From the NCBI GenBank assembly GCA_016786595.1, contig JAEUWB010000006.1, positions 50,648 through 114,647 on the forward strand: a stretch of DNA of 64,000 bases, written 5' to 3'. Source of the stretch: a bacterium (GTDB taxonomy: Bacteria > Bdellovibrionota_C > UBA2361 > SZUA-149 > JAEUWB01). Shown in pieces: positions 6,745-57,578 of this stretch; the first letter of the stretch is position 1, and each line of letters opens with the position of its first letter. Below the pieces are notes generated by a model that saw only the letters and a program-made list of their open reading frames with translations, was not told where the DNA came from and did not search any database. Position numbers and translations under genes: made by a program.

Positions 6745-6925
6745 GCTTAGGCTTGAACTTGAACTTCCTCTAATCCTGCTTCAATTCTCACAACAAGATC
6801 ATCGGCTAAGTATCATGATTGCATGGTTGTCACGTAGTCAGTCTAAGAAAAAGAATAAGTTCAAGCCTAAGCTGAAGAATTTCCGTCACTTGCAATCACA
6901 GCCTAGTTCTAAGCCTAAAGCTAAC
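6745..6925. repeat. REP-like palindromic intergenic element (copy 1 of >=7): left arm 'gcttaggcttgaacttgaactt', right arm 'aagttcaagcctaagc' plus 'ctaagcctaaagc'
   Basis: Inverted arms read directly. Lies between the convergent ppa and S1-protease genes. The overlapping 62-aa ORF 6743..6931 is a translation artefact of the repeat. Confidence 0.7.
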
Positions 6926-7049
6926 ACTTAGCTCGCTACTACTTCTAGTTTCTTTTCCGTAAGCTTACTGTCACAAGCTGGCCTTGCAACAGTAAGCAAA
7001 CCCACTTGATTAAAGTGGGTTTGCTAATTGAGTAAAATCTAAAAAGTAA

Positions 7050-8483
7050 TCACTTCTTTTTGATCTTAATCTTTGTCTTTACTTCCGGGCTTAGATTACC
7101 AGCGTTGTCAGTTGCATGTAGCTTTAAACTATACGATCCAATCGCCCGTGGTCGAAGCTTAACTTCATAAATACCCGACCCAACATATTTGGCCGCTACG
7201 CGATTAATTTTCTTACAACCAGAACCTAATTTTCTGCACTCTGCTTTACTCATTTGATAGAGTGCTCGTCCAATCACGCGCGCAATGCCGAGCGAATAGC
7301 CCGGATCAATTGCTCGATAGCGCAGACTACATGAGCCAACCTTGCAATCAGCAGAAAGAAAAGATAGTTCAGGCGCCCTAATATCATTGATCACGACACG
7401 GTAAGACCAATCTGAATCAGCAGACACTTCACCTCCACCATTACTTGCTGTTACTCGACAAGAAATAAACTTCCCAAGAAGATTTTCGACGATAGTTAAT
7501 TGTGCCTGGTTTTGGCCATCAATTTTGGCCTCTTCAGAATTTTCATCATCTTGAAACCAGCTGTAGGTAAATTGGATATTTTCGCCAGTCCATGCACCGG
7601 AATCACACGTCAAAGTTTCTCCGACATATGGGTCGCCGAATAATGTAACATCAGTTTCAAGATATGGAGCTGGTGGTGGAAATGTATAGACCCAGTCGCT
7701 GTAGGCCGCGATACGCGTATAAACACCGTAGGCAAATGAACTTGCACAACCAAATCCCCAACTTGTGATACCTGCTATTTTCCATGATCCATTGCCATCA
7801 GGCACAACCAATGGGCCTCCGGAGTCGCCATTACAGGTATCAACTCCATTTAATTCGCCTGGATCGGATAAAATTCCAGCGCAAAGATGTTTTTGCGGAT
7901 TGAAAAATCGGCCAATACTATCACGACAGGTAGTATCATCTTTGATCGGAATTAGTGCTTGCTGCAGCGTATCTGGCAAAACTGGATAGTCTGGATTTTT
8001 TGTCCCCCACCCTAAAATCGTTGAAATTGTTCCAGCTGTCCATAAGGATTCATCGCCACTTTCGACCAAGGGCACTGCCGGATATGCTACAGGATTTTCA
8101 AGCTTGACTAAGGCAATATCATTAATCTTAAGATAGCTGTCATATAATGGATGCACTGAAATACCCGAAACATTCTCGATTGTTCCATTTTCATTGCTCA
8201 ACGTCGTGCGTCCGACAAGAACCTGGATGTCGCTTGGCCGAGCCCACGCGACACAGTGCCCTGCTGTTACAACATATTGCGGCGCAATTAGTGCGGCCCC
8301 GCAAAAGTGCGCATAGAATGGATTTGTTCCTTTATAAGAGATACTGGCCATCCACGGATACTCACCCTCCGGAGCATTTGACCCATTGATGATAAATGCT
8401 CCCCGGTCAGCAACCGCTGCGGATGCTCCACAGAATGCAAAAAAAGCTGCAAGAATTAATCGAAAAGTCCTATTTTTTAGCAT
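7050..8483 (-). CDS. Secreted trypsin-like serine protease (peptidase S1) with a C-terminal extension domain
   Basis: TAGHC histidine motif, GDSGGPLV serine motif, N-terminal signal peptide. Confidence 0.85.
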   Translation of the reverse strand: MLKNRTFRLILAAFFAFCGASAAVADRGAFIINGSNAPEGEYPWMASISYKGTNPFYAHFCGAALIAPQYVVTAGHCVAWARPSDIQVLVGRTTLSNENGTIENVSGISVHPLYDSYLKINDIALVKLENPVAYPAVPLVESGDESLWTAGTISTILGWGTKNPDYPVLPDTLQQALIPIKDDTTCRDSIGRFFNPQKHLCAGILSDPGELNGVDTCNGDSGGPLVVPDGNGSWKIAGITSWGFGCASSFAYGVYTRIAAYSDWVYTFPPPAPYLETDVTLFGDPYVGETLTCDSGAWTGENIQFTYSWFQDDENSEEAKIDGQNQAQLTIVENLLGKFISCRVTASNGGGEVSADSDWSYRVVINDIRAPELSFLSADCKVGSCSLRYRAIDPGYSLGIARVIGRALYQMSKAECRKLGSGCKKINRVAAKYVGSGIYEVKLRPRAIGSYSLKLHATDNAGNLSPEVKTKIKIKKK

Positions 8484-8589
8484 ATACCCCCCTTACTGCT
8501 TGGCGATAGTTAGATGTGCTTATTGCACATCTAACTTCCCAACGCAAACGTTCCCCCTTATGTTTTTCTCAATAAACTTTAAGAGTGGT

Positions 8590-9675
8590 TTACTGAACTA
8601 TATCTAGTTTCTTCTTCCGTGAGCTTTCCGTCACAAGCTGGCCGCAAGCGGCAGCAATATCCTGCCCTTTGGACCAACGAATCGTCGCGTTCATTCCCTT
8701 AGAAAGTAGCGTTTCTTGCCAGAGTCCAATGCGGTCTCGGTCGGGCGGATAAAAACCCAGACCTGTATTTTCGTTATAAGGAATCAAATTAATCTTTGAA
8801 GGAATATCACGCAACAATCCAGGCAAACGCTTGAGGTCTGCATCAGTGTCATTGACATCTTTCAAGAGCACATATTCAATCGTGATACGCTTGCCCGCCT
8901 TAAGCGGAAAACGCCTGAGCGCGCCGAGCAATGTCTCCAGTGGCCATTTCTTATTAATCGGAATTAATTTCTCGCGCACTTCATCAGTCGTAGCGTTGAG
9001 AGAAATCGCCAGATTTGCTGGGATATTTTCCTCCCCAAAACGATCAATTGCTGGCACAAGTCCAGAGGTAGAAATTGTTACTTTGCGTGATGAGAAATTA
9101 TGCCCGAGGTTATCATTCAAAAGTCGTGCAGCTTCAAAGACATTTTCGACATTATGCAAAGGCTCGCCCATGCCCATAAAAACGATATTGGAAAAAGAAT
9201 CCCTTTCCGGGTCATCCCCGCGCTCGACCACATCATCCTGCACAGCTAAAACTTGGCCAATAATTTCTGCAGCAGTCAGATTACGCGTCAGACCCATCGT
9301 TCCAGTCATGCAAAAACGGCAACCAATCGCACAACCAACCTGTGAAGAAATGCAAAGGGTGTTACGCTTTTCTTGCTTGATAAAAACACTTTCAACCTGC
9401 ATGCCATCGGTAAGCTTAAACAGATATTTGCGTGAGCCATCCTTAGAAAGCAGCACTTCGGCCTTTTCCGGCCGGGAAATCAGGCACTTTTCCTTTAATT
9501 CTTCGCGAAGTTTTTTTGAAAAATCCGTCATCGCATCAAAGTCGGTAACGCGCTGACGATGAATCCATTGAATCATTTGACGCGAGCGATAAGCTGGGAC
9601 TTGGAAGTTTGTCGATAAGTACTCACCGAGCTTAGCCCGCGACAAACCAGTAATGTCAGTTTTTTCAGTATTCAT
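8590..9675 (-). CDS. rlmN: 23S rRNA (adenine2503-C2)-methyltransferase RlmN (radical SAM)
   Basis: CAIGCRFCMTG radical-SAM cysteine motif and RlmN-like N-terminus; 361 aa. Confidence 0.85.
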   Translation of the reverse strand: MNTEKTDITGLSRAKLGEYLSTNFQVPAYRSRQMIQWIHRQRVTDFDAMTDFSKKLREELKEKCLISRPEKAEVLLSKDGSRKYLFKLTDGMQVESVFIKQEKRNTLCISSQVGCAIGCRFCMTGTMGLTRNLTAAEIIGQVLAVQDDVVERGDDPERDSFSNIVFMGMGEPLHNVENVFEAARLLNDNLGHNFSSRKVTISTSGLVPAIDRFGEENIPANLAISLNATTDEVREKLIPINKKWPLETLLGALRRFPLKAGKRITIEYVLLKDVNDTDADLKRLPGLLRDIPSKINLIPYNENTGLGFYPPDRDRIGLWQETLLSKGMNATIRWSKGQDIAAACGQLVTESSRKKKLDIVQ

Positions 9676-9708
9676 AGTTGCTTCAACGATACTACTATTT
9701 CTTTTTCA

Positions 9709-9786
9709 GCTTAGGCTTAACCCTACGCTTACGCCAAATGGGAAGGGTAAGGGAAAGTTCAAGCCTAAGCCTAAGTTTTCCTCGCA
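9709..9786. repeat. REP-like palindromic element (copy 2): 'gcttaggcttaa ... gggaagggtaagggaaag ... aagttcaagcctaagcctaag'
   Basis: Inverted arms with a purine-rich loop; lies between ndk and rlmN, which are co-oriented. Confidence 0.75.
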
Positions 9787-9887
9787 AGCCGATCTGTTGA
9801 ATTAAAGAAAACGACTAACAATATAATTGCGAGCGAATTACAACAGAGAAAAAATCCCCGCAACGACGTATTTAGCCAAAATCACAC

Positions 9888-10298
9888 TTAAAACTCTGGG
9901 AAGAAAAATTGGATTTCCTTGCGTGCGTTTTCCAAACTATCTGAACCGTGCACAGTATTGGCATCGATACTGGTCGCAAAATCCGCCCGGATTGTTCCTG
10001 GAGCTGCCTCTTTCGGGTTAGTTGCACCCATAATTTCACGGTTAAGCGCGACAGCATTTTCGCCTTCAAGCACGCTGACCACCACAGGACCAGAAGTCAT
10101 AAATTCAACTAAGTCTTTAAAGAATGGACGCTCGCGGTGAATATCATAAAATGATCCCGCCAGGTCCTTAGAAAGTGTCAGCATTTTTGTAGCAGCAATT
10201 TTCAGACCGCGATCTTCAAAACGAGTAAAAATCTTACCGATCACGTTCTTTTTAACGCCATCTGGTTTAATAATTGAGAGTGTTCTTTCAGTAGCCAT
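9888..10298 (-). CDS. ndk: Nucleoside diphosphate kinase
   Basis: [15 protein letters not shown] ... NAVHGSDS active-site His context; 136 aa. Confidence 0.95.
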
Positions 10299-10317
10299 TT
10301 TCCTTCCTTTCTATTCT

Positions 10318-10560
10318 TTTTGAGGCGCATTATTATACCAGTTTGCAAAAAGATTCTGAATAAAATCACGATTTTTGCAAACCGGTATAATAGTTGTGTC
10401 GGAGACGCAACTAGCCAATTAATAGCGTTCCCCTCCATTAAAAACATGCAGATGCAAAGTTCATACATATAGAAGGACTGCGTTTTGCGTTTTGTAGCTC
10501 AGATATGATGTTTGCTACAAAATACGAATATTTACGGGGAAAGCTATAATCTTTTTTGTC
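10318..10560. repeat. Copy A of a ~240-bp two-hairpin intergenic repeat (family 2): 'attataccagtttgcaaaaag...tttttgcaaaccggtataa' and 'cgttcccct...ggggaaagctataat'
   Basis: About 75% identical to 52905..53140; contains two internal inverted repeats. Confidence 0.7.
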
Positions 10561-10643
10561 ATAATCGGCAAGTATGGTTCAAAAAACTCATAAATGTTAG
10601 AAACTTAACAAAAATAACGCATCGATCATTAAGCAATAACTTT

Positions 10644-12488: not shown

Positions 12489-12620
12489 GCTAGCGCGCAC
12501 TCACTATCTAGTGTGCAATCAAAGGCCGCGCCGACGACGAAAAAAAAATATCCCTAAAAGGCGGGCAAGGTAGAGGAGGAAATGTGCCTACAAAACCTTG
12601 CCCAGAACGATTATCGGAAA

Positions 12621-13142
12621 TTAGGCTTCAACCCCAACGTCATACTCTTCCATCCCTGCTTCGTGAGCCTGGATTTTTGCGCGAAGTCCTTCAACGAGGG
12701 CATCAATTTGAGCCTTCATATTAGACTCGAGCTCAGGTAGCGCTTGCGCTGCTTCGGCGATTGCCAGGCAATATGCAAGAAAAGCGCTGTGTCCTTCTCT
12801 CTGCCGCTCTCCATACGACGGCGAATGCTCGGCCCCGAGTAGAGCTTGCTGACAGCGCAGATACTCTTTATGCTTTTCAGCAACAGCTTCGGGTAATTCT
12901 TTGCCTGCCAGCAAAGTCGCGCAAATTGCAACCAGAAAGTTAACCGCATTGCGCTTCGAGGCTTGGTTTTCTTTTCGCAGCGCCTCACACTGTTCCTCTA
13001 GTTGTCCTAATTGTTTGTTCGTGAAAGCAAGAAGTTCCGCAAGTCTTATTTTGTCAGTCCAGATGTCAACAATCGCGATCAGAATTGCGAATAACAAAAC
13101 ACCGGATACTACGATCACTAGTAACCATTGCCACCAGTTCAT
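12621..13142 (-). CDS. Hypothetical membrane-anchored coiled-coil protein (173 aa)
   Basis: N-terminal TM helix, then heptad-rich sequence. Confidence 0.45.
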   Translation of the reverse strand: MNWWQWLLVIVVSGVLLFAILIAIVDIWTDKIRLAELLAFTNKQLGQLEEQCEALRKENQASKRNAVNFLVAICATLLAGKELPEAVAEKHKEYLRCQQALLGAEHSPSYGERQREGHSAFLAYCLAIAEAAQALPELESNMKAQIDALVEGLRAKIQAHEAGMEEYDVGVEA

Positions 13143-14531: not shown

Positions 14532-14546
14532 ATGATGTGTTAACGC

Positions 14547-21893: not shown

Positions 21894-21937
21894 TTCCTTT
21901 TCGCTTTATTTAGAACACGTCAGGGAAGTTTTGATTA

Positions 21938-22052
21938 TGTTCGAGGTTGAGACGAGTTCGAGGAACGGGAATTGCGAGCAGCAGAGTTTATTGTAATAAA
22001 TGAGCAGCGCAGCAATGTCCCGTTCTGAAGAAATCGGCCAAGATCGGACATA
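21938..22052. repeat. MITE-like structured repeat (family 3), copy 1, inserted between lemA and its TPM partner genes
   Basis: Shares 'tttattgtaataaatgagcagcgcagcaat' and 'aatcggccaagatcggac' with copies at 23372 and 28411. Confidence 0.7.
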
Positions 22053-23371: not shown

Positions 23372-23470
23372 CGTTGAGGTTCAACAAAAATCTCCCGCGA
23401 CGACTTGTCCGCCGTAGTCGGCGAAACTGCGTAGGCGGAAGAAATTTGGCCAAGAACGGACTTAAATACT
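23372..23470. repeat. MITE-like structured repeat (family 3), copy 2 (right-half variant), abutting the 3' end of sucD
   Basis: 'cgacttgtccgccgtagtcggcgaaactgcgtaggcggaagaaatttggccaagaacggac' matches 28508..28562. Confidence 0.7.
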
Positions 23471-24342
23471 TAGCGATTGAGCAACTCCCGCATAGCCACC
23501 CCAATCGTCGCCGGGGATCGCGTTGTTGCCACACCGGCTTTTTCCAGAGCTTTGAACTTTCCTTCGGCAGTTCCCGAACCACCGCTGATGATTGCACCAG
23601 CATGGCCCATGCGTCGCCCCTCAGGAGCTGTCGCTCCACCGATAAAACCAACAACAGGCTTTTTCACGTGAGACTTAATATATTCCGCGGCCTCTTCTTC
23701 AGCAGTTCCACCAATCTCACCAATCATCACGATCGCATCAGTGTCGCGATCTTCATTGAAAAGCTTCAAGCAATCGATAAAGTTTGTGCCATTTAATGGA
23801 TCGCCACCAATACCAATACAAGTCGATTGACCAATCCCGAGCGAAGTCAATTGATCAACAGCTTCATAGGTGAGTGTTCCTGACCTGGAAACAACACCGA
23901 CTCGACCAGGCAAGTGAATGTGGCCGGGCATGATACCAATCTTACAGGCGCCAGGTGTAATAATTCCTGGACAGTTTGGACCGATCAGGCGCGTGTTAGA
24001 ATTTTTAAGATAGGTTTTGACTTGGAGCATGTCACGCACGGGAATACCTTCAGTGATACAGACAACAAGCGGTACTCCAGCATCGCAAGCTTCAAGAATT
24101 GCATCTGCGGCGAAAGGAGGAGGGACATAGATCACGCTGGCGTTGGCCCCTGTGGCCTTAACAGCATCCTTAACTGAATCAAATACAGGGATGCCTTCTG
24201 CCGTTTCGCCACCTTTGCCGGGACTTACCCCCGCAACCATTTGCGTGCCGTACTCTTTACAGGCCTTGGTATGAAACATGCCGGTTTTGCCGGTCATGCC
24301 TTGTGTTAGTACTTTTGTATTTTTATCAACTAAAACAGCCAT
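23470..24342 (-). CDS. sucD: Succinyl-CoA synthetase alpha subunit
   Basis: Near-colinear with the E. coli SucD sequence ([27 protein letters not shown]). Confidence 0.95.
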
Positions 24343-24348
24343 TTTCTT

Positions 24349-25515
24349 TTATCCTTTCGCAACCTCAGCAACAATCTTCTTTGCCGCATCCGCCATATCG
24401 TCAGCTGGAATGATTTTTAATCCTGAATCAGCAAGCATTTTTTTGCCAATATCAACGTTTGTACCCTTGAGGCGCACTACCAGTGGAACTTTAATCGAGA
24501 GTTCCTTGGCCGCTTCAATAATACCCCCGGCAATTACATCGCAGCGCATAATGCCGCCAAAAATATTGACTAAAATGCCTTTGACACTTGAGTCGCTAAG
24601 AATCAGCTTAAAAGCTTCGGTCACCATTTCCTTAGTTGCACCACCACCGACATCGAGGAAGTTAGCTGGTGAACCGCCAGCCTGCTTGATGATGTCCATG
24701 GTTGCCATCGCTAAGCCTGCGCCATTTACCATACAACCGATGTTGCCATCTAAAGCGATATAGTTAATGCCTAGTTCGCCGGCGCGGATTTCACGCTCAT
24801 CGATTTCATCATAATCGAGGCGATCAAAGCCATCCTTTTGGCGATACAAAGCGTTATCGTCGAGTGCCATTTTAGCATCAAGACAAATGAAATTTCCTTC
24901 CGTAGTTTCAATCAAGGGATTAATTTCTAGCATCGAACAATCAAGCTCGAGAAATGCACGATAGAGGTTTTTTACAACCGGCGTTAATTTCTTTTGCAAA
25001 TCCTTATCAAGCTTTAAGAACTGACCAATCGAGCGGATATGGAAATCCTGTAGGCCCGTTTCGGGAAGCACGTTCACTGTCAAAACTTTTTCTGGATTTT
25101 TGTGGGCGATTTCCTCAATCTCCATTCCGCCTTCGGCGCTGATGATAAATGAAACACAAGTACTTTCACGGTTCATAATCAAACTGAGATAAAACTCACG
25201 TTTGATATCCGAAGCTTTTTCGACCCAAACCTTGCGCACTAAGCGACCTTGTGGACCAGTTTGTGGAGAGACTAGAGTCATGCCGATAATTTTTTCACCT
25301 AAACTGAAAGCCTCGTTAGGAGTTTTGGCAAGTTTAACACCGCCACCCTTTCCACGACCACCAGCGTGAATTTGGGCTTTGACCACAGTCAGTCCGCCAC
25401 CTAAATTAACCGCCGCCTTTTTAACTTCTCGCGGCGTATAACAAAGAAATCCTGGATTAACTGGTAATCCAAATTTTCCTAAAAAATCCTTGGCTTGATA
25501 CTCATGTAAATTCAT
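24349..25515 (-). CDS. sucC: Succinyl-CoA synthetase beta subunit
   Basis: [11 protein letters not shown]... ATP-grasp N-terminus; adjacent to sucD. Confidence 0.95.
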
Positions 25516-25538
25516 TGATTAGTACCTTAATTAATCAC

Positions 25539-26471
25539 TTACTTATTTAAACTTGCTACAAGATCACGCACATGCGAGGCGCTCACAGCTAGTTCTTGCT
25601 TTTCTTTTTCAGTCATTTCGATTTCAACGACTTTCTCTACGCCCTTCGCGCCGATAATTGTGGGAACGCCCATGTAGAGATCCTTAAACCCGTATTCGCC
25701 ACGGAGATAAGCTGCGCAAGGGATCACTTTCTTTTGGTCGAAAAGATAGCTCTCGGCCATTTCGATCGCTGAAATTGCTGGCGAGTAGAAGGCTGAGCCA
25801 GTCTTGAGTAGCGCTACAACTTCGCCACCCGATCCACGCACGCGTTTCTCGATAGCATCGAGACGATCTCCAGGAATCAGCTGCGCAACTGGAACGCCAT
25901 TAACAGTAGTGTAGGATCGGATCGGCACCATATCATCGCCATGTCCGCCAAGCACGAAAGCTGAAACCGATGTCGGAGAAATTTTTAATTCTTCGGCAAT
26001 ATGCGCACGATAACGCGCTGAATCAAGAACGCCAGCCATACCCACAACGCGCTCATGTGGGAAGCCAGTTTCCTTTTGGCAAAGAGTTACCATCACGTCT
26101 AGCGGGTTAGAGACAACAATTACAAAAGCGTTAGCGGCGTATTGTTTAACGCCTTGCGCTACGGTTTTCATGATGCCCGCATTTGTCGCAATTAAATCAT
26201 CGCGGCTCATTCCAGGCTTACGTGGAATTCCCGCTGTAATGATCACGACGTCTGCGCCTTCGATATCTTTATAATCTGTGGTGCCTTTGACTGCTACAGA
26301 AGTGCCAAGCACTGGTGCTGCATGCGTGAGATCGAGCGCTTTCCCGGCGGCAACTCCATCGGCAACGTCAAACATCACAACGTCCCCAAGTCCACGCTCG
26401 AGGGCAAATAAAGCAAGTGTTCCACCAATATTTCCAGCACCGATCAGGGCAATTTTACGACGTGTTTTCAT
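25539..26471 (-). CDS. mdh: Malate dehydrogenase (LDH-like family)
   Basis: KIALIGAGNIGGTLA Rossmann motif; ATG at 26471 preferred over the longer ORF. Confidence 0.85.
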   Translation of the reverse strand: MKTRRKIALIGAGNIGGTLALFALERGLGDVVMFDVADGVAAGKALDLTHAAPVLGTSVAVKGTTDYKDIEGADVVIITAGIPRKPGMSRDDLIATNAGIMKTVAQGVKQYAANAFVIVVSNPLDVMVTLCQKETGFPHERVVGMAGVLDSARYRAHIAEELKISPTSVSAFVLGGHGDDMVPIRSYTTVNGVPVAQLIPGDRLDAIEKRVRGSGGEVVALLKTGSAFYSPAISAIEMAESYLFDQKKVIPCAAYLRGEYGFKDLYMGVPTIIGAKGVEKVVEIEMTEKEKQELAVSASHVRDLVASLNK

Positions 26472-26785
26472 AATTATTTTGCAGTCTCCAATTAACGTAC
26501 AACGCCGGTTTGTATACAGAATTAGATCTGGCCGCAACTGTAGAGATAAATAGTCCGTAATTGCTTAATTTAAAAATCTTGAGTAATAATGAGCCCCTTT
26601 CGGGTAGTAGGGGATTATTAATAGGTTTTGAAACTGTTTTCAAAAGTTAATTTATTAACTTTTAGAAAACACTTCATCGCACCGTAGTCCCAATTTTTAA
26701 TTGGGCGAAGGCGGATAAGCCTTGCGAATCTGTTGGTTCAAGTTGCTCGCCATGATGCGGGCAAGTTCAACCAACAGGTGAAGTT

Positions 26786-27660: not shown

Positions 27661-27724
27661 CCTCGAGGTAATGATTTAAGTCGGCGGCGCTTTACTGTTG
27701 CCAGCTTAAATCATTGCCTCGAGG
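27661..27724 (+). promoter_or_regulatory. 20-bp-stem hairpin ('cctcgaggtaatgatttaag' / 'cttaaatcattgcctcgagg') whose 3' arm contains the GAGGT Shine-Dalgarno of the ORF starting at 27732
   Basis: One mismatch in 20 bp; loop of 24 nt; the ATG lies 7 nt after the stem. Confidence 0.5.
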
Positions 27725-28311: not shown

Positions 28312-28410
28312 GGTTTATACCTCGTTATCTAAGTTAACAGATTGCCGCGGTCGCATGAAATAAAATTTCATGCTCCCTCGCAATGACTGACGGCCCCGTT
28401 CGCCATCTCT

Positions 28411-28576
28411 GAATACGGTTGAGATTGAGTCGATGTCGAGGAACGGACCTTAATACAGAGCAAGAAGCGCGCTTTATTGTAATAAATGAGCAGCGCAGCA
28501 ATCTCCCTGACGACTTGTGCGCCGTAGTCGGCAAAGCCGCATAGGCGGAAGAGATCGGCCAATCTCGGCCGTATTC
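28411..28576. repeat. MITE-like structured repeat (family 3), full-length copy 3 with 17-bp terminal inverted repeats 'gaatacggttgagattg' / 'caatctcggccgtattc'
   Basis: Contains both halves found separately in copies 1 and 2. Confidence 0.75.
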
Positions 28577-40203: not shown

Positions 40204-40284
40204 GCTTAGGCTTGAACTTATACTTCCCCTTAAGCTTTTTTAAAAAAGGTTAAGGGAAAGGGAAAGGGAAAGTTCAAGCCTAAG
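40204..40284. repeat. REP-like palindromic element (copy 3): 'gcttaggcttgaactta ... ggttaagggaaagggaaagggaaag ... ttcaagcctaag'
   Basis: Read directly. Confidence 0.75.
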
Positions 40285-40298
40285 TTTGAAAAAAACAA

Positions 40299-41880: not shown

Positions 41881-41986
41881 TCTTGAACTTTGGCTTGAGC
41901 TTGAGCTTACCTCTATTCCCATAAAATAACCAATAGATTTTGTTACTCAGATTAAGGTAAAGGATAAGCTTATATTCAAGTTCAAG
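41881..41986. repeat. REP-like palindromic element (copy 4, degenerate left arm) in the divergent mcm / acyl-CoA carboxyltransferase intergenic region
   Basis: 'tcttgaactttggcttgagcttgagctta ... aagttcaagcctaagcc'. Confidence 0.6.
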
Positions 41987-42037
41987 CCTAAGCCTATCAG
42001 CACAACACGCTTGAATGCTATATCGCTGAGATAAGAA

Positions 42038-45123: not shown

Positions 45124-45726
45124 ATGGAAATCGAAAAACTGTTTAGTTACGCAGAACAAGCTCTCGGACCAGAAATTAGTTCCGTGCTTTCCGCACAAGG
45201 TATTGCTAATTCCAACTCTTCACGCGCTACTGCTGAAACAGTGGTGAACAGTCTTTTTCAGCAATTACAAAACGGCAATGCCAAGCCCTTTGCGGAAATG
45301 CTTTCTGGCATGGAAACAAGTCAAAATCATGAAGTCGTGCAAAATTTAAGCCCGACAATCAGTAATGATCTAGCAACTAAATTAAATATCGATAGCCGCA
45401 CCGCGCAACGGATCGCGATGGTCGCCTTGCCAATTGTGCTCAACATGTTCAACAAGCGCGCCTCGGGACTACATTCTCAAGGCGGCGATTTTGGTTCAAG
45501 CTTCGGTAAAATTTTCGGCAGCATGGTCGGTAAGCAACTTGGCCAAATGGCTGGTGGCCAACCGCAGCGTAGTGGCTTACCGCTAGGCAGTATCTTGTCC
45601 AAAATGATTTCTGTATTTTTTGGTGGAACTAAGTCAGCTGTCCCCGCCAACCGAATCGGCAATCAACCGAGCTCAGCAAACATGGAAGCTGTGGTCTGGG
45701 AGATGCTTAAGAAGGTGATGCACTAG
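45124..45726 (+). CDS. Hypothetical protein, DUF937 (YidB)-like
   Basis: Low-complexity Gly/Ser-rich protein; family call is weak. Confidence 0.45.
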   Translation: MEIEKLFSYAEQALGPEISSVLSAQGIANSNSSRATAETVVNSLFQQLQNGNAKPFAEMLSGMETSQNHEVVQNLSPTISNDLATKLNIDSRTAQRIAMVALPIVLNMFNKRASGLHSQGGDFGSSFGKIFGSMVGKQLGQMAGGQPQRSGLPLGSILSKMISVFFGGTKSAVPANRIGNQPSSANMEAVVWEMLKKVMH

Positions 45727-45736: not shown

Positions 45737-45801
45737 AGCTTAGGCTTGAACTTCCCCTTCCGTCTTCCTAGGATAAGTAAAAGTCTAAGTTCAAGCCTAA
45801 G
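45737..45801. repeat. REP-like palindromic element (copy 5): 'gcttaggcttgaactt-cccctt...-aagttcaagcctaag'
   Basis: Read directly; lies between convergent genes. Confidence 0.8.
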
Positions 45802-45820
45802 TAAATAGCTGATAATCTGC

Positions 45821-46972
45821 TTACGACCCCTTCGGCAGTCCAAGCACGCGCTCGGCGATAATCCCACGCTGAATTTCAGAAGTGCCCGCGGCAATGGTTC
45901 GTCCCCGCGAATAGAGATAGCGGTGCTCCGCGCTTAAGGCTTGATCCCCAATCCCTAGCACACCAGCTGAGCCGAGAATTTCTAGTGCAAATTTTGAAAT
46001 CTCTTGAAAGTTTTCACTCCAGAAAAGCTTATCCAGAGACCCCTCAGGCCCTGGATTTTTCCCGGAAGAATATTCCACTAAGTGACTTAGCGCCAGGGTG
46101 CGCACAGCCATATTGTTAGCAATCAAGCGACCGAGGCGGTCAAGTTCAAGCGCTGTCGCTCCACGGGCGTTCAACACTTCTACAATCTCTGCTAAAGCTT
46201 TTTCTGATTGCAGGTGCCGCGCGAAAGTCAAAATTACGCGCTCATACATTAAAGTCGATATTGCGATTTTCCAGCCATCGCCGGGCTTTCCCACAATCAT
46301 CTCACCAGGCACTTTAACATCTTCAAAGAAAACTTCATTAAACTCTTGGTCACCTGAAATCTGTGTAAGTGGGCGCACGCTAATGCCTGGTGTTTTCATG
46401 TCAACCAAGAAATAGGTCAGCCCTTTGTGTTTCGGAACTGTTTGATCGCTACGCGCTAAGACAAAACAAAACTGTGCATACTGAGCAAAACTCGTCCAAA
46501 CTTTTTGTCCTGAAATCGACCAATTTGAACCCTGCTGGACTGCCTGCGTTTTGAGTGAAGCTAAGTCACTGCCAGCCTGAGGTTCACTAAAGCCTTGGCA
46601 CCAGATTTCTTCAGCTAAGAGAATTTTCTGTAAAAATCTCTGTTGCTGCTCGGCCGACCCATGCTCAATTAATACCGGGCCAACCATGGTTAGGCCGAAA
46701 AGATTAATCAGCTGCGGGGCATCAGCCTTACCCAGCTCTTCTTGAATTACAGCCTCTTCGACTAAACTTAATCCGCGTCCGCCATATTGCTCAGGCCAGT
46801 GCACTGCGACCCAACGTGCCTCGGCTAATTTACGTTGCCAAGCGCGAGAGACTTCAACAAATTCCGAAAGATCTGCGTGCTGACTTAAAGCTGGAGGTCG
46901 GTTACTTTTTAACCAAGTTTTAATTTCGCTGCGGATTTTTTCAGCGCGATCGCTTAAAGTAATTTCAATCAT
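45821..46972 (-). CDS. Acyl-CoA dehydrogenase family protein
   Basis: ACAD middle and C-terminal domain pattern; ATG at 46972 preferred because the longer ORF overlaps zwf. Confidence 0.8.
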   Translation of the reverse strand: MIEITLSDRAEKIRSEIKTWLKSNRPPALSQHADLSEFVEVSRAWQRKLAEARWVAVHWPEQYGGRGLSLVEEAVIQEELGKADAPQLINLFGLTMVGPVLIEHGSAEQQQRFLQKILLAEEIWCQGFSEPQAGSDLASLKTQAVQQGSNWSISGQKVWTSFAQYAQFCFVLARSDQTVPKHKGLTYFLVDMKTPGISVRPLTQISGDQEFNEVFFEDVKVPGEMIVGKPGDGWKIAISTLMYERVILTFARHLQSEKALAEIVEVLNARGATALELDRLGRLIANNMAVRTLALSHLVEYSSGKNPGPEGSLDKLFWSENFQEISKFALEILGSAGVLGIGDQALSAEHRYLYSRGRTIAAGTSEIQRGIIAERVLGLPKGS

Positions 46973-46982
46973 ACTTCTACTC

Positions 46983-48503
46983 TTAAGATTTATACCAGCC
47001 ACGCCCAATACGACGTAGCAAAAGTTCATCGGCCATACTCGGTCCAGCACTACCAGCTTCATAACCGTAAACAGGTGGCATGCGTAGTTTACTTGTTTTC
47101 CAAGCTTCAAGAATTGGTGCTACTACCGCCCAAGCCTGCTCAATTTCGTCGTTACGAGTAAATAGTGTCGGGTCTCCCTTCATCGCATCAAGTAGGAGGC
47201 GCTCATAGGCTTCAGGTGGTTCCACTCCAAATGATTTTCCATAACTAAATTCCATGTCCACGCCCTGCAGCTTGACACTCGGTCCTGGAGGTTTACAGTT
47301 AACACGAAGAAAAATCCCCTCATCTGGCTGAATTTGGAAGGTGAGCACATTTGAAGCTACTTGATCGATACCAAACTTTTCAAAAAATAAGTGTGGCGCT
47401 TCGCGAAAAAAAACAGAAATTTCTGTGACCCTTTCACTCAAGCGCTTGCCAGCTCGCAGGTAAAACGGCACGCCGTTCCAACGCCAATTATCAATTGCAA
47501 ATTCAATGCCGACGTAGGTTTCAGTTTCTGATTTTTTATCAACTCCGGCTTCTCCGAGATATCCCGCTACAGCTTCATTACCAATTTTGCCGGCGAGATA
47601 ACGCCCCCGCACAACTTTATTGGCTACATCTTCCGGCGAAAATTTACGAATCGATCTTAAGACTTTAACCTTTTCATCACGCACTGCGTTAGCTTCAAAG
47701 CTCACTGGTGGTTCAAGCGCCACTAAGCAAAGTAGCTGCAAAGCATGGTTTTGCACCATATCACGTAAGATTCCGGATTTATCGAAGTAGCCCGCACGCG
47801 TGCCGACGCCAATTGTTTCCGCAACTGTAATCTCTACATGGCTCACATATTTATGATTCCAGAGCGGCTCAAAAATACCGTTGGCGAAGCGGAATACTAA
47901 AATATTTTGCACCGTTTCTTTGCCAAGGTAATGATCGATGCGGTAGATTTGTTCTTCGCGCATCGCATTCAGCAGCTCTTGGTTCAGTTTTTTTGCCGAT
48001 TCCAAATCATGGCCAAAAGGCTTTTCTACAATCACACGTGACTGCTTCCAGGCATCTGGATTTGTAGCGATAGCTTCGCCGCTCAAGAGTCCAACTTCCG
48101 ATAAATACTTCGCTGCAGGGCCAAAAAACTCAGGTGCAGTTGCTAAATAAAAAACAACGTCACGTGAAGTCGACCCAAACTGAGTCAAGGCCTGACGCAG
48201 TTTCTCGTAGCTTTCCTTGGCACCGAGATCCCCAGAAACGTAGGCAATCTTACTGGTAAATTTGCTCCAAAGCGCTGGATCAATTGGTCGGCGGCGCGAA
48301 TATGTATCAACAGCCTCACGTAAGAATTCAATAAATTCTTCGCGAGTAAATTCTCTTCGAGAAAAACCAACTAAAGCAAAATCGTCGGGCAAGAGACCGT
48401 CGAGTGCCAGATTGTAAAGCGCCGGCACGAGTTTACGTTGCGCCAAATCGCCAGTTGCACCAGCAATCACTAAAGTTGTGGGACTGACTGTTTTGGGCTG
48501 CAT
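46983..48503 (-). CDS. zwf: Glucose-6-phosphate 1-dehydrogenase
   Basis: AGATGDLA NADP-binding motif and the DHYLGKE active-site region. Confidence 0.95.
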   Translation of the reverse strand: MQPKTVSPTTLVIAGATGDLAQRKLVPALYNLALDGLLPDDFALVGFSRREFTREEFIEFLREAVDTYSRRRPIDPALWSKFTSKIAYVSGDLGAKESYEKLRQALTQFGSTSRDVVFYLATAPEFFGPAAKYLSEVGLLSGEAIATNPDAWKQSRVIVEKPFGHDLESAKKLNQELLNAMREEQIYRIDHYLGKETVQNILVFRFANGIFEPLWNHKYVSHVEITVAETIGVGTRAGYFDKSGILRDMVQNHALQLLCLVALEPPVSFEANAVRDEKVKVLRSIRKFSPEDVANKVVRGRYLAGKIGNEAVAGYLGEAGVDKKSETETYVGIEFAIDNWRWNGVPFYLRAGKRLSERVTEISVFFREAPHLFFEKFGIDQVASNVLTFQIQPDEGIFLRVNCKPPGPSVKLQGVDMEFSYGKSFGVEPPEAYERLLLDAMKGDPTLFTRNDEIEQAWAVVAPILEAWKTSKLRMPPVYGYEAGSAGPSMADELLLRRIGRGWYKS

Positions 48504-49433: not shown

Positions 49434-49436
49434 AAA

Positions 49437-50543: not shown

Positions 50544-50555
50544 GTAACCGTATCC

Positions 50556-50667
50556 TTTGGCTTGAACTTATCTTTAACCTTCTGAATGAATGAAGGATAA
50601 AGAACTACAAGAGTTTAGGACAAGGATCAGGATCAGGTAAAGGGCAAGAGCAAGTTCAAGTGCAAGG
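50556..50667. repeat. REP-like palindromic element (copy 6, long-loop variant)
   Basis: 'ggcttgaactta ... aagttcaagtgcaagg' arms around a ~80-nt insert. Confidence 0.6.
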
Positions 50668-50674
50668 CACGAAC

Positions 50675-52830: not shown

Positions 52831-52904
52831 CTGACAGTTTGAGCTAAGTGGAATGATCTGTTGACTTAGTTATTCACCCGTCATTGCGAACGAAGTAAAG
52901 CAAT

Positions 52905-53140
52905 CTGTTCACCGATATATTATACCAGTTTGCAAAAAGATTTTGGATCAAACACAGGGTTTTTGCAAACTGGTATATAAGTTGTGTCGTAGACGCAACC
53001 AGCCAACAAATCGCGTTTCCCCTTTATAAACAAGCCCGTGCAAAGCTTATGCACTCAAAGGCAATGTTTTTTATAACTCAGCTGCGTTTGCTATATATTC
53101 AAAATATTTAGGGGAAACGCTATAATATTTTTTCGTAATC
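52905..53140. repeat. Copy B of the ~240-bp two-hairpin repeat (family 2)
   Basis: Aligns with 10318..10560; flanked by the inverted 'gtcattgcga' / 'tcgcaatgac' sequences at 52876 and 53180. Confidence 0.7.
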
Positions 53141-53331
53141 AGTGAACAGATTGCTTCCTCGCCTGCGGCTCCTCGCAATGACAGCTGATTTGCAAAGTGA
53201 GCAAAAAGGCGATCGCAATGTCACGCAGTGCAAATAAATTGACGCAACCGCTGATAAAACTTTCAAGCTCCTGAACTGGTGCTTGAAACCTTGAAAAACA
53301 TCCGTGTCACGGGTGAAATACAAGATTAGAC

Positions 53332-54072
53332 CTAGGCCATAGTCCGCGGATCCGTGAGTTCTTGATCAGCGGGTTCTCGATCCCTAGGTGCCTCATTCTG
53401 GTCGACTTTGGGAAATGTTACCTGGACATTAAAGCCCGGACGCATTTCCTTCAAGGCTTGCGCATGGTCTGCCGCAGAATGCGAACTACCTAGAAACGCC
53501 GTGCCGATGATTGCAACAACGAGCTCAGAATTTTGATCTTGAATGAATCGCGCTTGAATCACACGATACTCAATCTTATCCCGATCTACGGATTTCAACG
53601 TGACGATTTTCTCGTAATAACGCATGCCATTGCTTACCTGACCATCCATTGTCCCGTTACTGACATCGATGATTTTCAGATCCTTTCGAATCTGGCGGTA
53701 AGCCCCAATGAACGCAGCAAAGTAAGTCAGAGCGCCATCTTTGAAGGAGCTACTGCCAAAATCAAGCTCCGAGTAATTGACTGTGATTGTCCCAGATCCA
53801 CTGCGTCGAGCTAAATCCCCAAAGGCGGGATCGCTCAGCCGATCTTGTTCCTGCTGATAGGAGCGCCGGATCGTGCCCCAATCACTAGCAAATCGACCCT
53901 CGACGACGATTCCGGCTGGCGATTCGAATGTGTAATTGCGATCGAACAGGGCCACTCGCTCGATCGTTATTATCAGTAGGCTCGTGAGTATGGCTACCAA
54001 AGGCCAATACCAGAGCGGTCGTCCTCGATATGTTGATGATGGTGGGTTAGTCCCCAGAGATTCTTCTTGCAT
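53332..54072 (-). CDS. Hypothetical membrane-anchored protein (246 aa)
   Basis: One N-terminal TM helix; no recognisable domain. Confidence 0.5.
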   Translation of the reverse strand: MQEESLGTNPPSSTYRGRPLWYWPLVAILTSLLIITIERVALFDRNYTFESPAGIVVEGRFASDWGTIRRSYQQEQDRLSDPAFGDLARRSGSGTITVNYSELDFGSSSFKDGALTYFAAFIGAYRQIRKDLKIIDVSNGTMDGQVSNGMRYYEKIVTLKSVDRDKIEYRVIQARFIQDQNSELVVAIIGTAFLGSSHSAADHAQALKEMRPGFNVQVTFPKVDQNEAPRDREPADQELTDPRTMA

Positions 54073-54275
54073 TTCAAAACCTTCCTTATTTTATTTTGCA
54101 CCAGTTCAGTGCTGGAGCTTAGCTTACACAAAGCAAAACTTGAGCACTGAGATGAAAGCGAAATACCCAAAGAAAAGGTTTTGAAAGAACTGCAAAAGAC
54201 TATAACGAAGAAAATATAGAAATAAAAGTGGAGGTTGGTAGCACCAAATAACAACCTCCTGAGACCTTGAGTTAC

Positions 54276-56102
54276 TTAAGCAACGTGCTCAGTGAAAATC
54301 TTCCACCGCACAAAACTGCTGACACCTTCACGATCCGCTCGAGGAGTGCTTCTGACTTTTTCTCCGGATTTAACTCCGTCGAGTTTAGACATAAAGCGTT
54401 CTCTCTGGAATCCACTCTTTGTGAGATCGGTAACCACAAAGTCAAACGTCAATGCATCACCATGGGCGACAATCCGCGTTCCATAGATCGCTTGATGTCC
54501 CTGCCAGTGCTCAATTTGGCCATCTCCCATGGCAATGATGTCTTCTTCAAGTTTGCTAAATGGAGTGCCGGCCGTGTTTTGATTGGCACGACGCCAGTCA
54601 ATGTCCATTCCATCTGCGATGCGTAAAAGCGCGCAAACAAAAGCGGCCTTAAGATCCTTTGGAAAGGGCATACCCCCTCCATGATAGAGGCAAATTTCGG
54701 CCAGTTGTCCGACTTCCTCATCAGTGAGGAGCCCCTCAAACTTGCCGTTCTTGGCCATTTCCAGAATCATGTCATGTGAATACTCGTAGTGGTGCTTACG
54801 AGCGTCCTCGGGCGACTTATTCTTCATGCCATGACCGATGTCGTGCAGAGCTCCAGCAAGACGTAACAGCAAGAGCGCTCGATCGTCGAGGTACTTGAAG
54901 TTACCACCTTTCCTTCCAAAGAAAAGCGAAGCCAAGGACTCGACAATCTTGAGGACCCTGATCACGTGACGTTGAGTGTGTTCGGTCATGTACCAGGGCG
55001 CATGAACGCGCGTCATGATGCCAAGCCCAAAACTCACCATATCCTTAGCAGTAAGTTCCGCCTCTTCCGGAATCGGCTGAGCGAGTTTACGAGCGATTTC
55101 TCGCATCAGCTCACTCTGATCTTGACCTTCTTCGAGTCGAAGCGTGACTGCATCCTGCTGACCGCGCAATTCATATTCCGACAAGCGCCAGCGCGGAGGC
55201 TGAGCATCTTTCTTCCAATGACGAAGCACAACGAGCTTTGTTACCCCGTTTTGCATTGCGCCGATCGCATAGTGGCAGTCATGCTTTTCCGCCAAGGCTT
55301 CCAGTTGCCGGTAACCCCAATTGGAATAGAGCGGTTCCTGACAAATCAGCACTCGGTATTCGCCAGCAACGACCTCGATCGCCGATTGCTTGACGATGTC
55401 CGGAAGCGGATTTGTTTCGGCAAGACCAAGCAGCCACTTCCAAGCGTCCTTATCCCTACGACGAGTATCGTTCGCGATGCAGACTAGTGCATTGAGAGGT
55501 GCTTCTCGCACGACAACGTCAAGGCCATGAGCAATACGGACCTCTGATGACTTGGCGTCTCTGTGGTAATTATCGCGGTCACAAATGGCCCCGATTCTTC
55601 CCCAACGCCGAGCATGTTTGTCGACTTGTCCATTCGACCCCCAAGCACCGGTAAAGCAAAGCGCAGGATTTGAGACAATCACAACCTTTGCCCCAGCCTC
55701 AACAAGCGGAGCCCAATTGATTTTCGTGCCCCGGTGATGGTCGATGATTTCAACCAAAGTACCTGTGCGCGTGAGTGCTTTGACTTTAGCCTGCACTTGT
55801 TCGACAAGCCCCTGGTCGGAGGACGGTAACGGTGTTTCGAGGATGATGATCCTACGAGTTCTGCCCGGATCAACTTGAAGTGCAAGGAAGGTGTCACGCC
55901 AGAAACTTTTGGGGTTCCCAGTTTGTTCTTCGCTGCAAACAACGTCTACGCGTTCCTTTGCCGCAAGAAGTTGCCGAAAGGTAATCGCCCCCATTGCAAC
56001 ACCATGAGCATCGGGACGCACGAAAAGAATCGTCTCTCGCCGATGGAATGGCAAGCTGCCATTTTGCTTTCGCTCCCGTGGAGCGCGTGTAGTTTTTTTC
56101 AT
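54276..56102 (-). CDS. DHH-family phosphoesterase fused to an HD-domain phosphohydrolase (unusual two-domain predicted nuclease/phosphatase)
   Basis: IIDHHRGT (DHH motif) in the N-terminal half; LAGALHDIGHG (HD motif) in the C-terminal half. Start taken at ATG 56102 (MKKTTRAP...). Confidence 0.65.
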   Translation of the reverse strand: MKKTTRAPRERKQNGSLPFHRRETILFVRPDAHGVAMGAITFRQLLAAKERVDVVCSEEQTGNPKSFWRDTFLALQVDPGRTRRIIILETPLPSSDQGLVEQVQAKVKALTRTGTLVEIIDHHRGTKINWAPLVEAGAKVVIVSNPALCFTGAWGSNGQVDKHARRWGRIGAICDRDNYHRDAKSSEVRIAHGLDVVVREAPLNALVCIANDTRRRDKDAWKWLLGLAETNPLPDIVKQSAIEVVAGEYRVLICQEPLYSNWGYRQLEALAEKHDCHYAIGAMQNGVTKLVVLRHWKKDAQPPRWRLSEYELRGQQDAVTLRLEEGQDQSELMREIARKLAQPIPEEAELTAKDMVSFGLGIMTRVHAPWYMTEHTQRHVIRVLKIVESLASLFFGRKGGNFKYLDDRALLLLRLAGALHDIGHGMKNKSPEDARKHHYEYSHDMILEMAKNGKFEGLLTDEEVGQLAEICLYHGGGMPFPKDLKAAFVCALLRIADGMDIDWRRANQNTAGTPFSKLEEDIIAMGDGQIEHWQGHQAIYGTRIVAHGDALTFDFVVTDLTKSGFQRERFMSKLDGVKSGEKVRSTPRADREGVSSFVRWKIFTEHVA

Positions 56103-56107
56103 TTTTT

Positions 56108-56173
56108 CACCTGTTCTCAGAACCGAAAACAAGTTGGGCGAATTGTTATTATTTGCGGTTAAGAGAACAGGTG
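56108..56173 (-). promoter_or_regulatory. 5'-UTR hairpin: perfect 11-bp stem ('cacctgttctc' / 'gagaacaggtg') that sequesters the AGGTG Shine-Dalgarno of the DHH-HD gene
   Basis: Loop of 44 nt; the stem ends 5 nt before the ATG on the minus strand. Confidence 0.5.
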
Positions 56174-56469
56174 AACTGGAAATGAAAAAGAAATTAAAAA
56201 AACCTAAATGTGCTACCAACTTCCTTCGCGAATTTTAGAGCCCAAATAATCCGCTCTTCCGCGAAGGAAAGGTATAAACTTCTACCCGTAATAGCCTATA
56301 AAAATCAGGCCATAATTTAGCATAATTTTAGTGCTTTTTCAAAGCGTGCCTTTTTAAGGGTTTTATGTTTAGTTTCAGGTGAAAAAATTAATACGGGTAA
56401 AGAATTAAATTACAGTCTCGTAGAGACGTTCGATTTGACTCTGTAAGACTGTAACTTACGATAATTCAG

Positions 56470-57029
56470 GTTTTATATTCGTTGAAGGCTTTGCGTTTAA
56501 GGAAACTTTCGTCACCTGATATGTATTTAGTTTACCATTAGCTTTGAATTTTTAATCTGAGAGTTCAAAGCTGACGGTGACTGAACTAACGAGAAGCGTA
56601 ACGCTCGGTGATGTAAAAAAAATCACCGAGTTTGCCCATACGCATCGTAGCCAGGAACGTGCCTCACTCTTTCAGCCTTCGAGAGCATAGGGGCAATTTT
56701 GTCAGCCATAGATGAGGAATATACCAATAGACTTGGTCTCATCTGTTGTCCCAGGCTTCAGCTTACCTCTCCACTGAAGTCTGGATTCTTTTTATTAACT
56801 GCGAGAGGAACTCATCCTCTCTCCTCCACTACTACCACCTCCCCTTGCTGTTGCACCCCCACTTCTAGCGAGTGGGAGGTTGGTAGACTAAACTGACGAA
56901 TTTCTGACCGCAATTCAACACCTAAAGGCCACGCAAAGATGGTCACGGTTAGTCAAGCAAACAAATAGGTGGGGGGCATCTCCCGACGGCTAGCTGCTCC
57001 TAACTAGCATGTCTCCCACCATTTTTTCC
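56470..57029 (+). ncRNA. Candidate ~560-nt structured non-coding RNA, class unknown
   Basis: The whole 1.37-kb region has no ORF of 60 aa or more in any frame. It holds a run of stable hairpins at 56745..56900, a candidate promoter (TTGACT 56435-56440, N19, GATAAT 56460-56465) and a strong plus-strand terminator at 56968..57029. Strand and ends are inferred. Confidence 0.3.
56968..57029 (+). terminator. Rho-independent terminator: GC-rich nested hairpin 'ggtggggggcatctcccgacggctagc...gctagcatgtctcccacc' followed by 'attttttcc'
   Basis: Read directly; the T-run is only on the plus strand. Confidence 0.6.
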
Positions 57030-57444
57030 GTCTTCTATCCTTGCAGTGAGCCCTCCGTAGCTCTCTTGCCATCTGCCTTTCCTCGTCGAGTTCACTTGAC
57101 TTTTGAGACGTGGCAGAACACGGCCCGTGGGTAGAGAAGCCATCTTACAGCTTCACTGGAGTGCTTTCCTCCGCTACCCCGGGTTCGTTTAAGGTTTATA
57201 AATTTTTCCTCCCTAGCCCTTTTTAACCGTCAAAGGGCAGTGTAAAGCCCGGAAGTAGCAGTGCTGGCTAAGTCACCTAGTCCAGATCACGAGGATCCCG
57301 CGGCAAACAGATCCTCAGCTACTCTCCGGGCCCGTTGAAAAAATTATGGTTATAAAATCGTACGTTACAGTCGCTTCCCTATTGACCATATCGCACTTGT
57401 AATTTTTTTTGCACCTCGTGTCGTTGGATTGCGAAAAGATTGAA

Positions 57445-57578
57445 GCTTAGGCTTGAACTTTTACTTAACCTTATCCTGCCCCTTCCTTTTTCAATTAGGG
57501 GTGGACTCTATTCGGGACAGGACAAGATCAAATTCAAATAGGGAGAAGGATAAGGTTAAGTTCATGCCTAAGCCTAAG
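57445..57578. repeat. REP-like palindromic element (copy 7, long nested-hairpin variant) 8 nt downstream of the TLP stop codon
   Basis: 'gcttaggcttgaactt' / 'aagttcatgcctaagcctaag' with an inner 'ttaaccttatcct' / 'aggataaggttaa' pair. Confidence 0.75.

Follow-up and report, generated by a model that had tools for sequence, protein, structure and literature searches.

The region analyzed in this study, referred to as the window, is a stretch of 64,000 nucleotides (nt) of contig JAEUWB010000006.1 (assembly GCA_016786595.1, positions 50,648 to 114,647 of the forward strand), originating from a bacterium of the Bdellovibrionota_C lineage. It carries seven copies of a short palindromic element, in each of which two inverted arms enclose an interior of variable length and sequence. 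The elements are real and form a family of intergenic hairpin repeats that is restricted to the lineage and has not been described before. A Pfam scan of approximately 50 open reading frames (ORFs) of the window showed that the family is located within an ordinary chromosomal region. The genes recognized there include (i) ppa, ndk, rlmN and queG, (ii) genes for methylmalonyl-CoA mutase (mcm), propionyl-CoA carboxylase and citrate synthase, as well as sucCD and mdh, (iii) pentose-phosphate genes, an RND efflux pump and several peptidases, and (iv) rplM/rpsI, a gene for a Thg1-like protein (TLP), an ECF sigma factor gene and polA. The non-coding share of the window is 14.3%.

The 16-mer GCTTAGGCTTGAACTT, searched on both strands with up to 2 mismatches, gave 11 matches in the window versus 0.05 expected, a number attained in none of 100 shuffles. 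An nhmmer profile of the arms recovered these matches together with three more diverged arms, i.e. exactly 14 arms forming seven inverted pairs, and nothing more. The pairs are always convergent (the left arm lies on the plus strand and the right arm is its reverse complement), and no arm occurs singly. The elements range in size from 65 to 134 nt, occur at a density of about 1 per 9 kb and make up 7.7% of all non-coding DNA of the window. All seven are intergenic (chance P ~1e-6, given the non-coding share). The original prediction of a dispersed family of at least seven copies, always intergenic and always an inverted pair, was thus borne out, and its coordinates agree with the nhmmer pairs to within a few nt. 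The seven copies are as follows.

Copy 1, 6745-6872: left arm 6745-6778 (G CTTAGG CTTGAA CTTGAA CTTCCT ...), right arm 6839-6872, interior of 96 nt; exact 16-mers on both strands; inverted repeat of 34 nt, 76% complementary; in the spacer where ppa and a trypsin-like protease gene converge; predicted RNA fold of -38.1 kcal/mol (z -3.4) with a perfect basal stem of 17 bp.
Copy 2, 9709-9775: diverged left arm 9709-9732 (GCTTAGGCTTAACCCT), right arm 9743-9775, (NNNAAG)6 with the CCTAAG unit duplicated; on the minus strand inside the ndk-rlmN junction, with the rlmN ATG 33 nt downstream; fold z -2.2; ranks among the inverted repeats of the window.
Copy 3, 40204-40285: near-complete palindrome of 82 nt, (CTTNNN)6 plus (NNNAAG)7, including (GGGAAA)3; between the mcm stop and the queG start (minus strand); predicted fold of -38.7 kcal/mol (z -5.4).
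Copy 4, 41882-41993: variant left terminus CTTGAACTTTGGCTTGAGCTTGAGCTT, canonical right terminus; located in a divergent spacer, at 14 nt (mcm) and 44 nt (pccB) from the flanking ATG codons; fold z -2.5.
Copy 5, 45738-45802: the shortest copy (65 nt), perfect basal stem of 16 bp; located in a convergent spacer, with an orphan 200-aa gene on one side and the gene for an acyl-CoA dehydrogenase on the other; fold z -6.6; sequence identical in three other samples.
Copy 6, 50554-50667: the most diverged copy, termini CCTTTGGCTTGAACTT and AAGTTCAAGTGCAAGG, long purine arm with (GGATCA)2; divergent spacer, 10 nt upstream of the transaldolase (tal) ATG; weak fold (z -1.5).
Copy 7, 57445-57578: a hairpin of 134 nt, longer than that of any other copy, with inner stem CTTAACCTTATCC/GGATAAGGTTAAG; its end lies 7 nt away from the TLP stop codon at 57586, and it adjoins a 1.2-kb ORF-free region; predicted fold of -53.6 kcal/mol (z -4.7); identical in contig L092.

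One boundary given previously required adjustment. Copy 1 had been drawn to position 6925; the pair itself is confirmed at 6745-6872, and the extension rests on a third stretch with weak resemblance to an arm, which was undetected by the profile.

The placement of the elements was compared among the spacers of at least 60 nt. Copies were found in 3 of the 18 co-directional spacers, in 2 of the 8 convergent ones and in 2 of the 7 divergent ones; there is therefore no preference for the 3′ ends of genes, and the family is restricted to intergenic DNA whatever the spacer type. Five start codons (those of rlmN, queG, mcm, pccB and tal) lie 10-44 nt from the end of an element. The placement at gene ends proposed earlier does not agree with these positions, as two of the seven copies are located in divergent promoter regions and the five start codons just mentioned have an element immediately upstream.

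The DNA next to two of the copies has features of its own. The 200-aa ORF beside copy 5 (45124-45726) contains no Pfam domain, and a search of 5.8 billion proteins gave no homologues outside the species. The 1.2-kb stretch 56220-57445, flanked by an HD-domain gene and by copy 7/TLP, is without any ORF longer than 65 aa; this region holds several local hairpins and a terminator-like stem (approximately 56964-57044), and gave no Rfam match even at E<=10.

A detailed inspection of the arms revealed a strict 6-nt periodicity, the left arms having the structure (CTTNNN)4-6 and the right arms (NNNAAG)5-7. When all 64 trinucleotides were considered, only CTT and AAG gave several runs of at least four such units, all of them at these seven loci. 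The arms can be aligned in register as G CTTAGG CTTGAA CTTnnn CTTnnn CTTnnn CTk. Pairwise identity is 89% over the first 16 nt, where the terminal inverted repeats carry 0-2 mismatches. Further inwards, the CTT columns retain 69% identity (11-13 of 13 arms match at positions 20-22 and 26-28), whereas the NNN columns beyond position 16 show 31% identity, which is about random. The interiors (30, 33, 50, 68, 82, 96 and 97 nt) cannot be aligned between copies. Each copy is thus built of three layers: (i) two near-identical 16-nt inverted termini (G CTTAGG CTTGAA CTT), (ii) degenerate CTTNNN extensions and (iii) a fast-turnover centre. What had been described as a polypurine/polypyrimidine loop is the inner part of the periodic arms. 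Long interiors (68-97 nt) are present in four copies and not in two, and there is no sign of the nested insertions invoked to account for them; the interiors simply fail to align.

Several hexamer duplications are confined to one arm, namely (GGGAAA)3 in copy 3, (GGATCA)2 in copy 6, (GCTTGA)2 in copy 4 and CCTAAGCCTAAG in copies 2 and 7. In addition, a small vocabulary of units recurs in varied orders: CTTATC (five times), CTTAAC (four to five times), CTTCCC, CTTTCC and CTTTTT. Because of these one-arm duplications and the reshuffled vocabulary, the arms behave like inverted degenerate hexanucleotide microsatellites. The conservation of CTT every 6 nt amid random triplets is the only real puzzle of the family. 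It could equally reflect a real constraint (e.g. a protein reading the spaced triplets) or be a by-product of insertions and deletions of whole hexamers, which would leave CTT in register and randomise the remainder, two possibilities that seven copies cannot separate.

The predicted RNA folds of the elements are more stable than those of dinucleotide shuffles in six of the seven copies (z -2.2 to -6.6), the exception being copy 6, and DNA folding parameters gave the same outcome. Perfect basal stems of 16-17 bp are predicted in copies 1, 3 and 5, clearly paired upper stems only in copies 3 and 7, and the longest inverted repeats of the whole window come from this family. The conserved part of the predicted hairpin is its foot. 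When the arms (34 nt) were folded singly, energies of 0 to -6.5 kcal/mol with differing pairings and no consistent hairpin were obtained; it is only the pair of arms that is predicted to fold.

We also searched for the elements outside the window. Near-identical DNA (99-100%) was found on short contigs from ENA and Logan, originating from at least five samples, with the elements unchanged. Since identical copies recur in independent assemblies, an assembly artefact is excluded. Two of these contigs from independent assemblies (L106 and L107) both stop at position 6509, within ppa, and another (L002) stops at 45777, within copy 5; these ends may be strain-variable, or may be assembly breaks induced by repeats.

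Beyond the species, the best non-self protein matches are 65-66% identical. The named matches of RlmN belong to Bdellovibrionota, Bdellovibrionales and Oligoflexia, and those of the mutase include Bdellovibrionales and several Acidobacteriota. In a syntenic relative (L096; gene order mcm-queG-lipoprotein), mcm and queG overlap by 17 nt, versus a gap of 118 nt in the window, 82 nt of which are copy 3. Similarly, the gap between ndk and rlmN is 12 nt in L101 (GCA_046328905.1) and 6 nt in L102, versus 212 nt in the window, where it contains copy 2. Neither a hexamer-periodic hairpin nor a match to the arm profile was detected in approximately 68 kb of DNA of the relatives. Two junctions occupied in the window (mcm/queG and ndk-rlmN) are therefore tight in the nearest available relatives, and the family is absent there. 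As a further difference in gene order, mdh-sucC-sucD-ndk-rlmN are contiguous in L101 and L102, whereas in the window ndk-rlmN (8590-10298) lie approximately 13 kb from sucCD-mdh (23470-26537).

The arm pattern CTTAGGCTTGAACTTNNNCTT gave 28 matches, all single, in 185,579 GTDB species genomes, and 60 stretches in JGI metagenomes, of which 59 are single and one (L046) has two matches without the hairpin arrangement. No partner arm with fewer than 3 mismatches lies beside any of the GTDB or JGI matches. Most of these outside matches are in lysine-rich coding sequence (K-F-K-P-K stretches) and their number is at the level of chance. In IMG/VR, a 15-mer gave only single chance-level matches, and the paired-arm pattern none. 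There were no Rfam matches at the gathering thresholds, and none on the elements at E<=1. The sequence strings of the element are absent from the literature, and no report of repetitive extragenic palindromic (REP) sequences or miniature inverted-repeat transposable elements (MITEs) in Bdellovibrionota was found. The family had initially been noted as one that was not recognized; it indeed corresponds to no Rfam family, no paper, and no other matching genome or metagenome. A hairpin of the "inside-out" type, (NNNAAG)6 - AT-rich loop - (CTTNNN)5, was observed in a Saprospiraceae metagenome-assembled genome (JBGTQJ010000047.1; L006, positions 7156-7232). It has a 21-mer in common with copy 1 and is a single instance in 8 kb. 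The resemblance may be coincidental, or may hint that hexamer-periodic hairpins of AAG/CTT also arise elsewhere.

Among the known classes of dispersed palindromes, the closest likeness is to the REPINs of Pseudomonas fluorescens SBW25 and other Proteobacteria (Bertels & Rainey 2011; PMC3337134, PMC3116915), which also consist of an inverted conserved pair around a variable, folding spacer. In REPINs, the inverted ends are conserved, and each copy has a spacer of its own length and sequence that still folds (PMC3337134); in the window there are seven convergent pairs whose spacers vary from 30 to 97 nt, and the whole unit forms the hairpin. In both cases this unit is a long hairpin and the elements occur densely in extragenic DNA; REPINs have no target-site duplication, and the flanking repeats of the family described here are inconsistent. 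There are also differences: (i) each REP of a REPIN has its own short imperfect palindrome, whereas the arms described here do not self-fold, (ii) arms built of CTTNNN hexamers have not been described for REPINs, and the sequences are unrelated, and (iii) no gene for the associated transposase (RAYT) was found among the approximately 50 ORFs of the window.

As a class, REPs are short imperfect palindromes (about 20-40 nt), each forming a hairpin by itself, that are present in extragenic DNA at tens to hundreds of copies per genome; the genome also encodes a RAYT (Y1/HUH transposase), whose gene the repeats typically flank. The REPs of Escherichia coli are approximately 35 nt long, with a 5′ GTAG guide tetranucleotide and CT cleavage sites, and a conserved tetranucleotide of the GTAG type 5′ of the foot of the hairpin is a property of REPs in general (PMC3479197). 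Such a tetranucleotide was not found at the foot of the elements studied, where the four bases 5′ of the stem (AGTT, TTCA, TTTG, TTAA, TGAA) are not conserved. The REP/BIME sequences of E. coli, with their TnpA(REP) (RAYT) protein, resemble the elements in being intergenic palindromes with a conserved foot, often placed between co-transcribed genes. The elements of the window differ from them in size (65-134 nt), in the absence of a conserved tetranucleotide outside the stem, and in their additional presence in divergent promoter regions. REP/BIME sequences of E. coli have known side effects on mRNA stability and protein binding. The earlier designation "REP/BIME-like" holds for the dispersed, intergenic, palindromic architecture, which is that of REPINs, and fails with respect to the GTAG foot and the mini-palindrome. 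Classification as REPs is therefore not justified, since there is no self-folding mini-palindrome, no GTAG-like foot and no RAYT known among the approximately 50 ORFs; the family works most like a REPIN or BIME, yet it is not demonstrably a member of either.

The Correia/NEMIS elements of Neisseria and the ERIC/IRU elements of enterobacteria measure 100-150 nt; both are imperfect palindromes whose terminal inverted repeats are conserved. They insert beside or between genes and are transcribed into stem-loops that can be processed by RNase, and their interiors are homologous; Correia elements have a fixed TA target duplication. The elements of the window are similar to both groups as palindromes with conserved terminal inverted repeats located beside or between genes, and differ from them in their unrelated interiors and inconsistent flanking repeats. 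The direct repeats found at the borders are TTTG (copy 3), TAA (copy 5) and, if the boundary is shifted by 1 nt, TTTTC (copy 2); the four other copies have none. Because of these inconsistent flanks and non-homologous interiors, classification as MITEs with terminal inverted repeats is likewise not justified.

With moderate confidence, we interpret the seven loci as copies of one lineage-specific, REPIN-like, non-autonomous palindromic repeat, which has spread into spacers, also within operons, and is probably co-transcribed now with the neighbouring genes. This reading is favored because of the inverted conserved ends, the variable spacer, the hairpin, the extragenic location and the lack of a consistent target-site duplication. 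The copies would arise by duplicative insertion into spacers, most likely through a single-stranded hairpin intermediate whose conserved foot is recognized by a trans-acting enzyme (of the RAYT/HUH type or another) encoded elsewhere in the genome. After insertion, slippage may add or remove whole hexamers in the arms, and the palindrome may decay at its tip. Elements placed in former operon junctions would be co-transcribed into stable RNA stem-loops, and these could have side effects on processing, on stability or on translation downstream. Effects at the RNA level would then probably be secondary.

A number of observations weigh against this interpretation. No presence/absence or sequence polymorphism was found for any copy among the same-species contigs (at least 99% identical), so there is no sign of recent mobility; these contigs are uninformative with regard to mobility. 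The empty-site comparisons are based on distant relatives (65-66% protein identity), and in them the occupied spacers also hold other extra DNA. The Pfam scan revealed no transposase, RAYT or integrase among the approximately 50 ORFs, the REP hallmarks (GTAG foot, mini-palindrome in each arm) are absent, and the copy number refers to a 64-kb window and not to the genome. Finally, complementarity of the interiors within copies is no better than between copies (permutation p = 0.17), and for this reason we make no claim of covariation or of selection for the upper stem.

The stem-loop might instead be a functional RNA retained at each site for its benefit to gene expression, a possibility that we regard as unlikely, though deserving consideration. 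Such a hairpin could serve as an RNase III-type processing site, an mRNA 3′-end protector, or a U-tract-independent terminator or attenuator. It would account for the stable predicted RNA hairpins with their perfectly conserved 16-bp foot, and the near-identity of the termini (89%) beside randomised interiors fits a constraint on the foot. The elements also lie between cistrons that abut in the relatives, and are therefore probably co-transcribed, and canonical intrinsic terminators are not enriched in the window (26 versus 22.9 expected; sigma-70 promoters are likewise at the shuffle level). However, the two copies in divergent promoter regions have no 3′ end to act on, other spacers have unrelated hairpins of their own (e.g. 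6990-7030 and 27661-27724), the relatives do without the element at the corresponding junctions, and a structural role needs no shared sequence. Moreover, none of the seven elements is followed by a U-tract on the transcribed strand. As regards the intrinsic terminators suggested originally, no consensus terminator or sigma-70 promoter identified in the window coincides with any element; owing to the spacer types, including the two divergent ones, and the lack of T-runs on the transcribed strand, this idea was rejected.

A classical MITE, i.e. a deletion derivative of an insertion sequence with a DDE transposase, mobilised via the 16-nt terminal inverted repeats, is an improbable origin of the family. 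The nearly perfect repeats, the size of 65-134 nt and the short flanking repeats at some copies (nominal p 0.013 for at least 2 of 7 copies with at least 3 nt) would suit such an element. But the flanking repeats are missing at four of the seven copies and vary in length (3, 4 and 5 nt), the interiors lack the homology seen in typical MITE families, there is no transposase or insertion sequence among the approximately 50 window ORFs, and the paired-arm motif is absent from IMG/VR, the arm motif elsewhere giving only single chance-level matches. It is more doubtful still that the periodic arms are a platform for protein binding. In that case they may be, rather than decayed copies, CUU/AAG arrays held at an exact 6-nt spacing, which would be read by a multimeric RNA- or single-stranded DNA-binding protein that competes with the hairpin and so creates a switch, or by an unknown mobilising enzyme. 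Oligomeric proteins acting on spaced RNA triplets include TRAP of Bacillus, which binds (G/U)AG repeats, and HutP, which binds UAG repeats. The likeness, which consists in 5-7 repeats of a 3-nt motif at short, constant intervals beside an alternative hairpin, is an analogy of pattern only; the elements differ in their triplet (AAG/CUU), in the exact 6-nt period, in being a dispersed repeat rather than a single leader, and in that no binding protein is known. The identity of the CTT columns past position 16 (69%, versus 31% for NNN) and the exclusive occurrence of the periodicity at these loci are in line with a platform of this kind. On the other hand, insertions and deletions of whole hexamers together with the shuffling of units (CTTATC five times, CTTAAC four to five times) yield the same pattern, there is no candidate protein, and the triplets are predicted to be base-paired within the hairpin. 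Were it true, hairpin switches under protein control would be dispersed before and between genes of central metabolism (ndk-rlmN, mcm-queG, pccB and tal), a principle of regulation or mobility that has not been described for REP-like repeats. Any other explanation (small peptide genes, integron attC sites or an assembly artefact) is scarcely credible. The (NNN AAG) frame does read as X-K repeats, and copy 7 is open for 52 codons in one frame; the idea of peptide genes was nevertheless rejected because no reading frame is conserved, the interior lengths of 30-97 nt keeping no frame and the other copies having stop codons within 15-21 codons. attC sites share the conserved ends and variable folded centres. 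Such sites have the R′/R″ cores GTTRRRY / RYYYAAC, co-oriented cassettes and intI in the vicinity. They were rejected because of a misfit to the core motif GTTRRRY (the right end, GTTCAAG, has C at an R position) and because of the gene context, which consists of housekeeping genes in mixed orientation, with no integrase among the approximately 50 ORFs. The artefact is contradicted by the occurrence of the same sequences in independent assemblies.

If the REPIN-like reading is correct, a deep-branching uncultured lineage related to Bdellovibrionota has independently acquired a dense population of such repeats, which pushed apart operon genes that formerly overlapped or abutted. This would add a phylum to a class of elements for which nearly all studies concern Proteobacteria (e.g. 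Pseudomonas and E. coli), as well as an unusual architecture, with arms built of hexamers, no REP mini-palindrome and no GTAG. The nearest sequenced relatives of the lineage are only about 65% identical in conserved enzymes. The finding overturns nothing, since new lineage-specific palindromic repeat families are to be expected. For practical purposes, the 16-mer GCTTAGGCTTGAACTT is a specific marker of the lineage in metagenomes, and the family is a likely cause of contig breaks.

The window also contains other repeats. A tandem duplication with a period of 142 nt (120 nt, 97% identity) lies between the rpsI stop and the TLP start (58524-58785), and its motif GCCAAATAC(G/T)TCGTT(A/G)CGGG(A/G)A(A/T)TTTT (minus strand) is also found after the ndk stop (9850-9893). 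This is a second repeat family of 3′ flanks, unrelated to the hairpin elements. An 87-nt repeat (77% identity) is present at 10331-10433 and 52921-53021; it includes a near-perfect palindrome of 18-21 nt (TATACCAGTTTGCAAAAA / TTTTTGCAAACTGGTATA), followed by a small hairpin, and looks like a shared operator/promoter or a small-RNA gene. Non-coding blocks with 78-87% identity occur in three different spacers, on the minus-strand side (21932-22021, 23399-23445 and 28410-28555).

Few genes have a Shine-Dalgarno-like sequence upstream of the called start. The longest ORFs of the genes for acyl-CoA dehydrogenase (45821-47110) and glucose-6-phosphate dehydrogenase (46983-48503) overlap by 128 nt, and one of the two true starts probably lies downstream of the mechanical ORF call.

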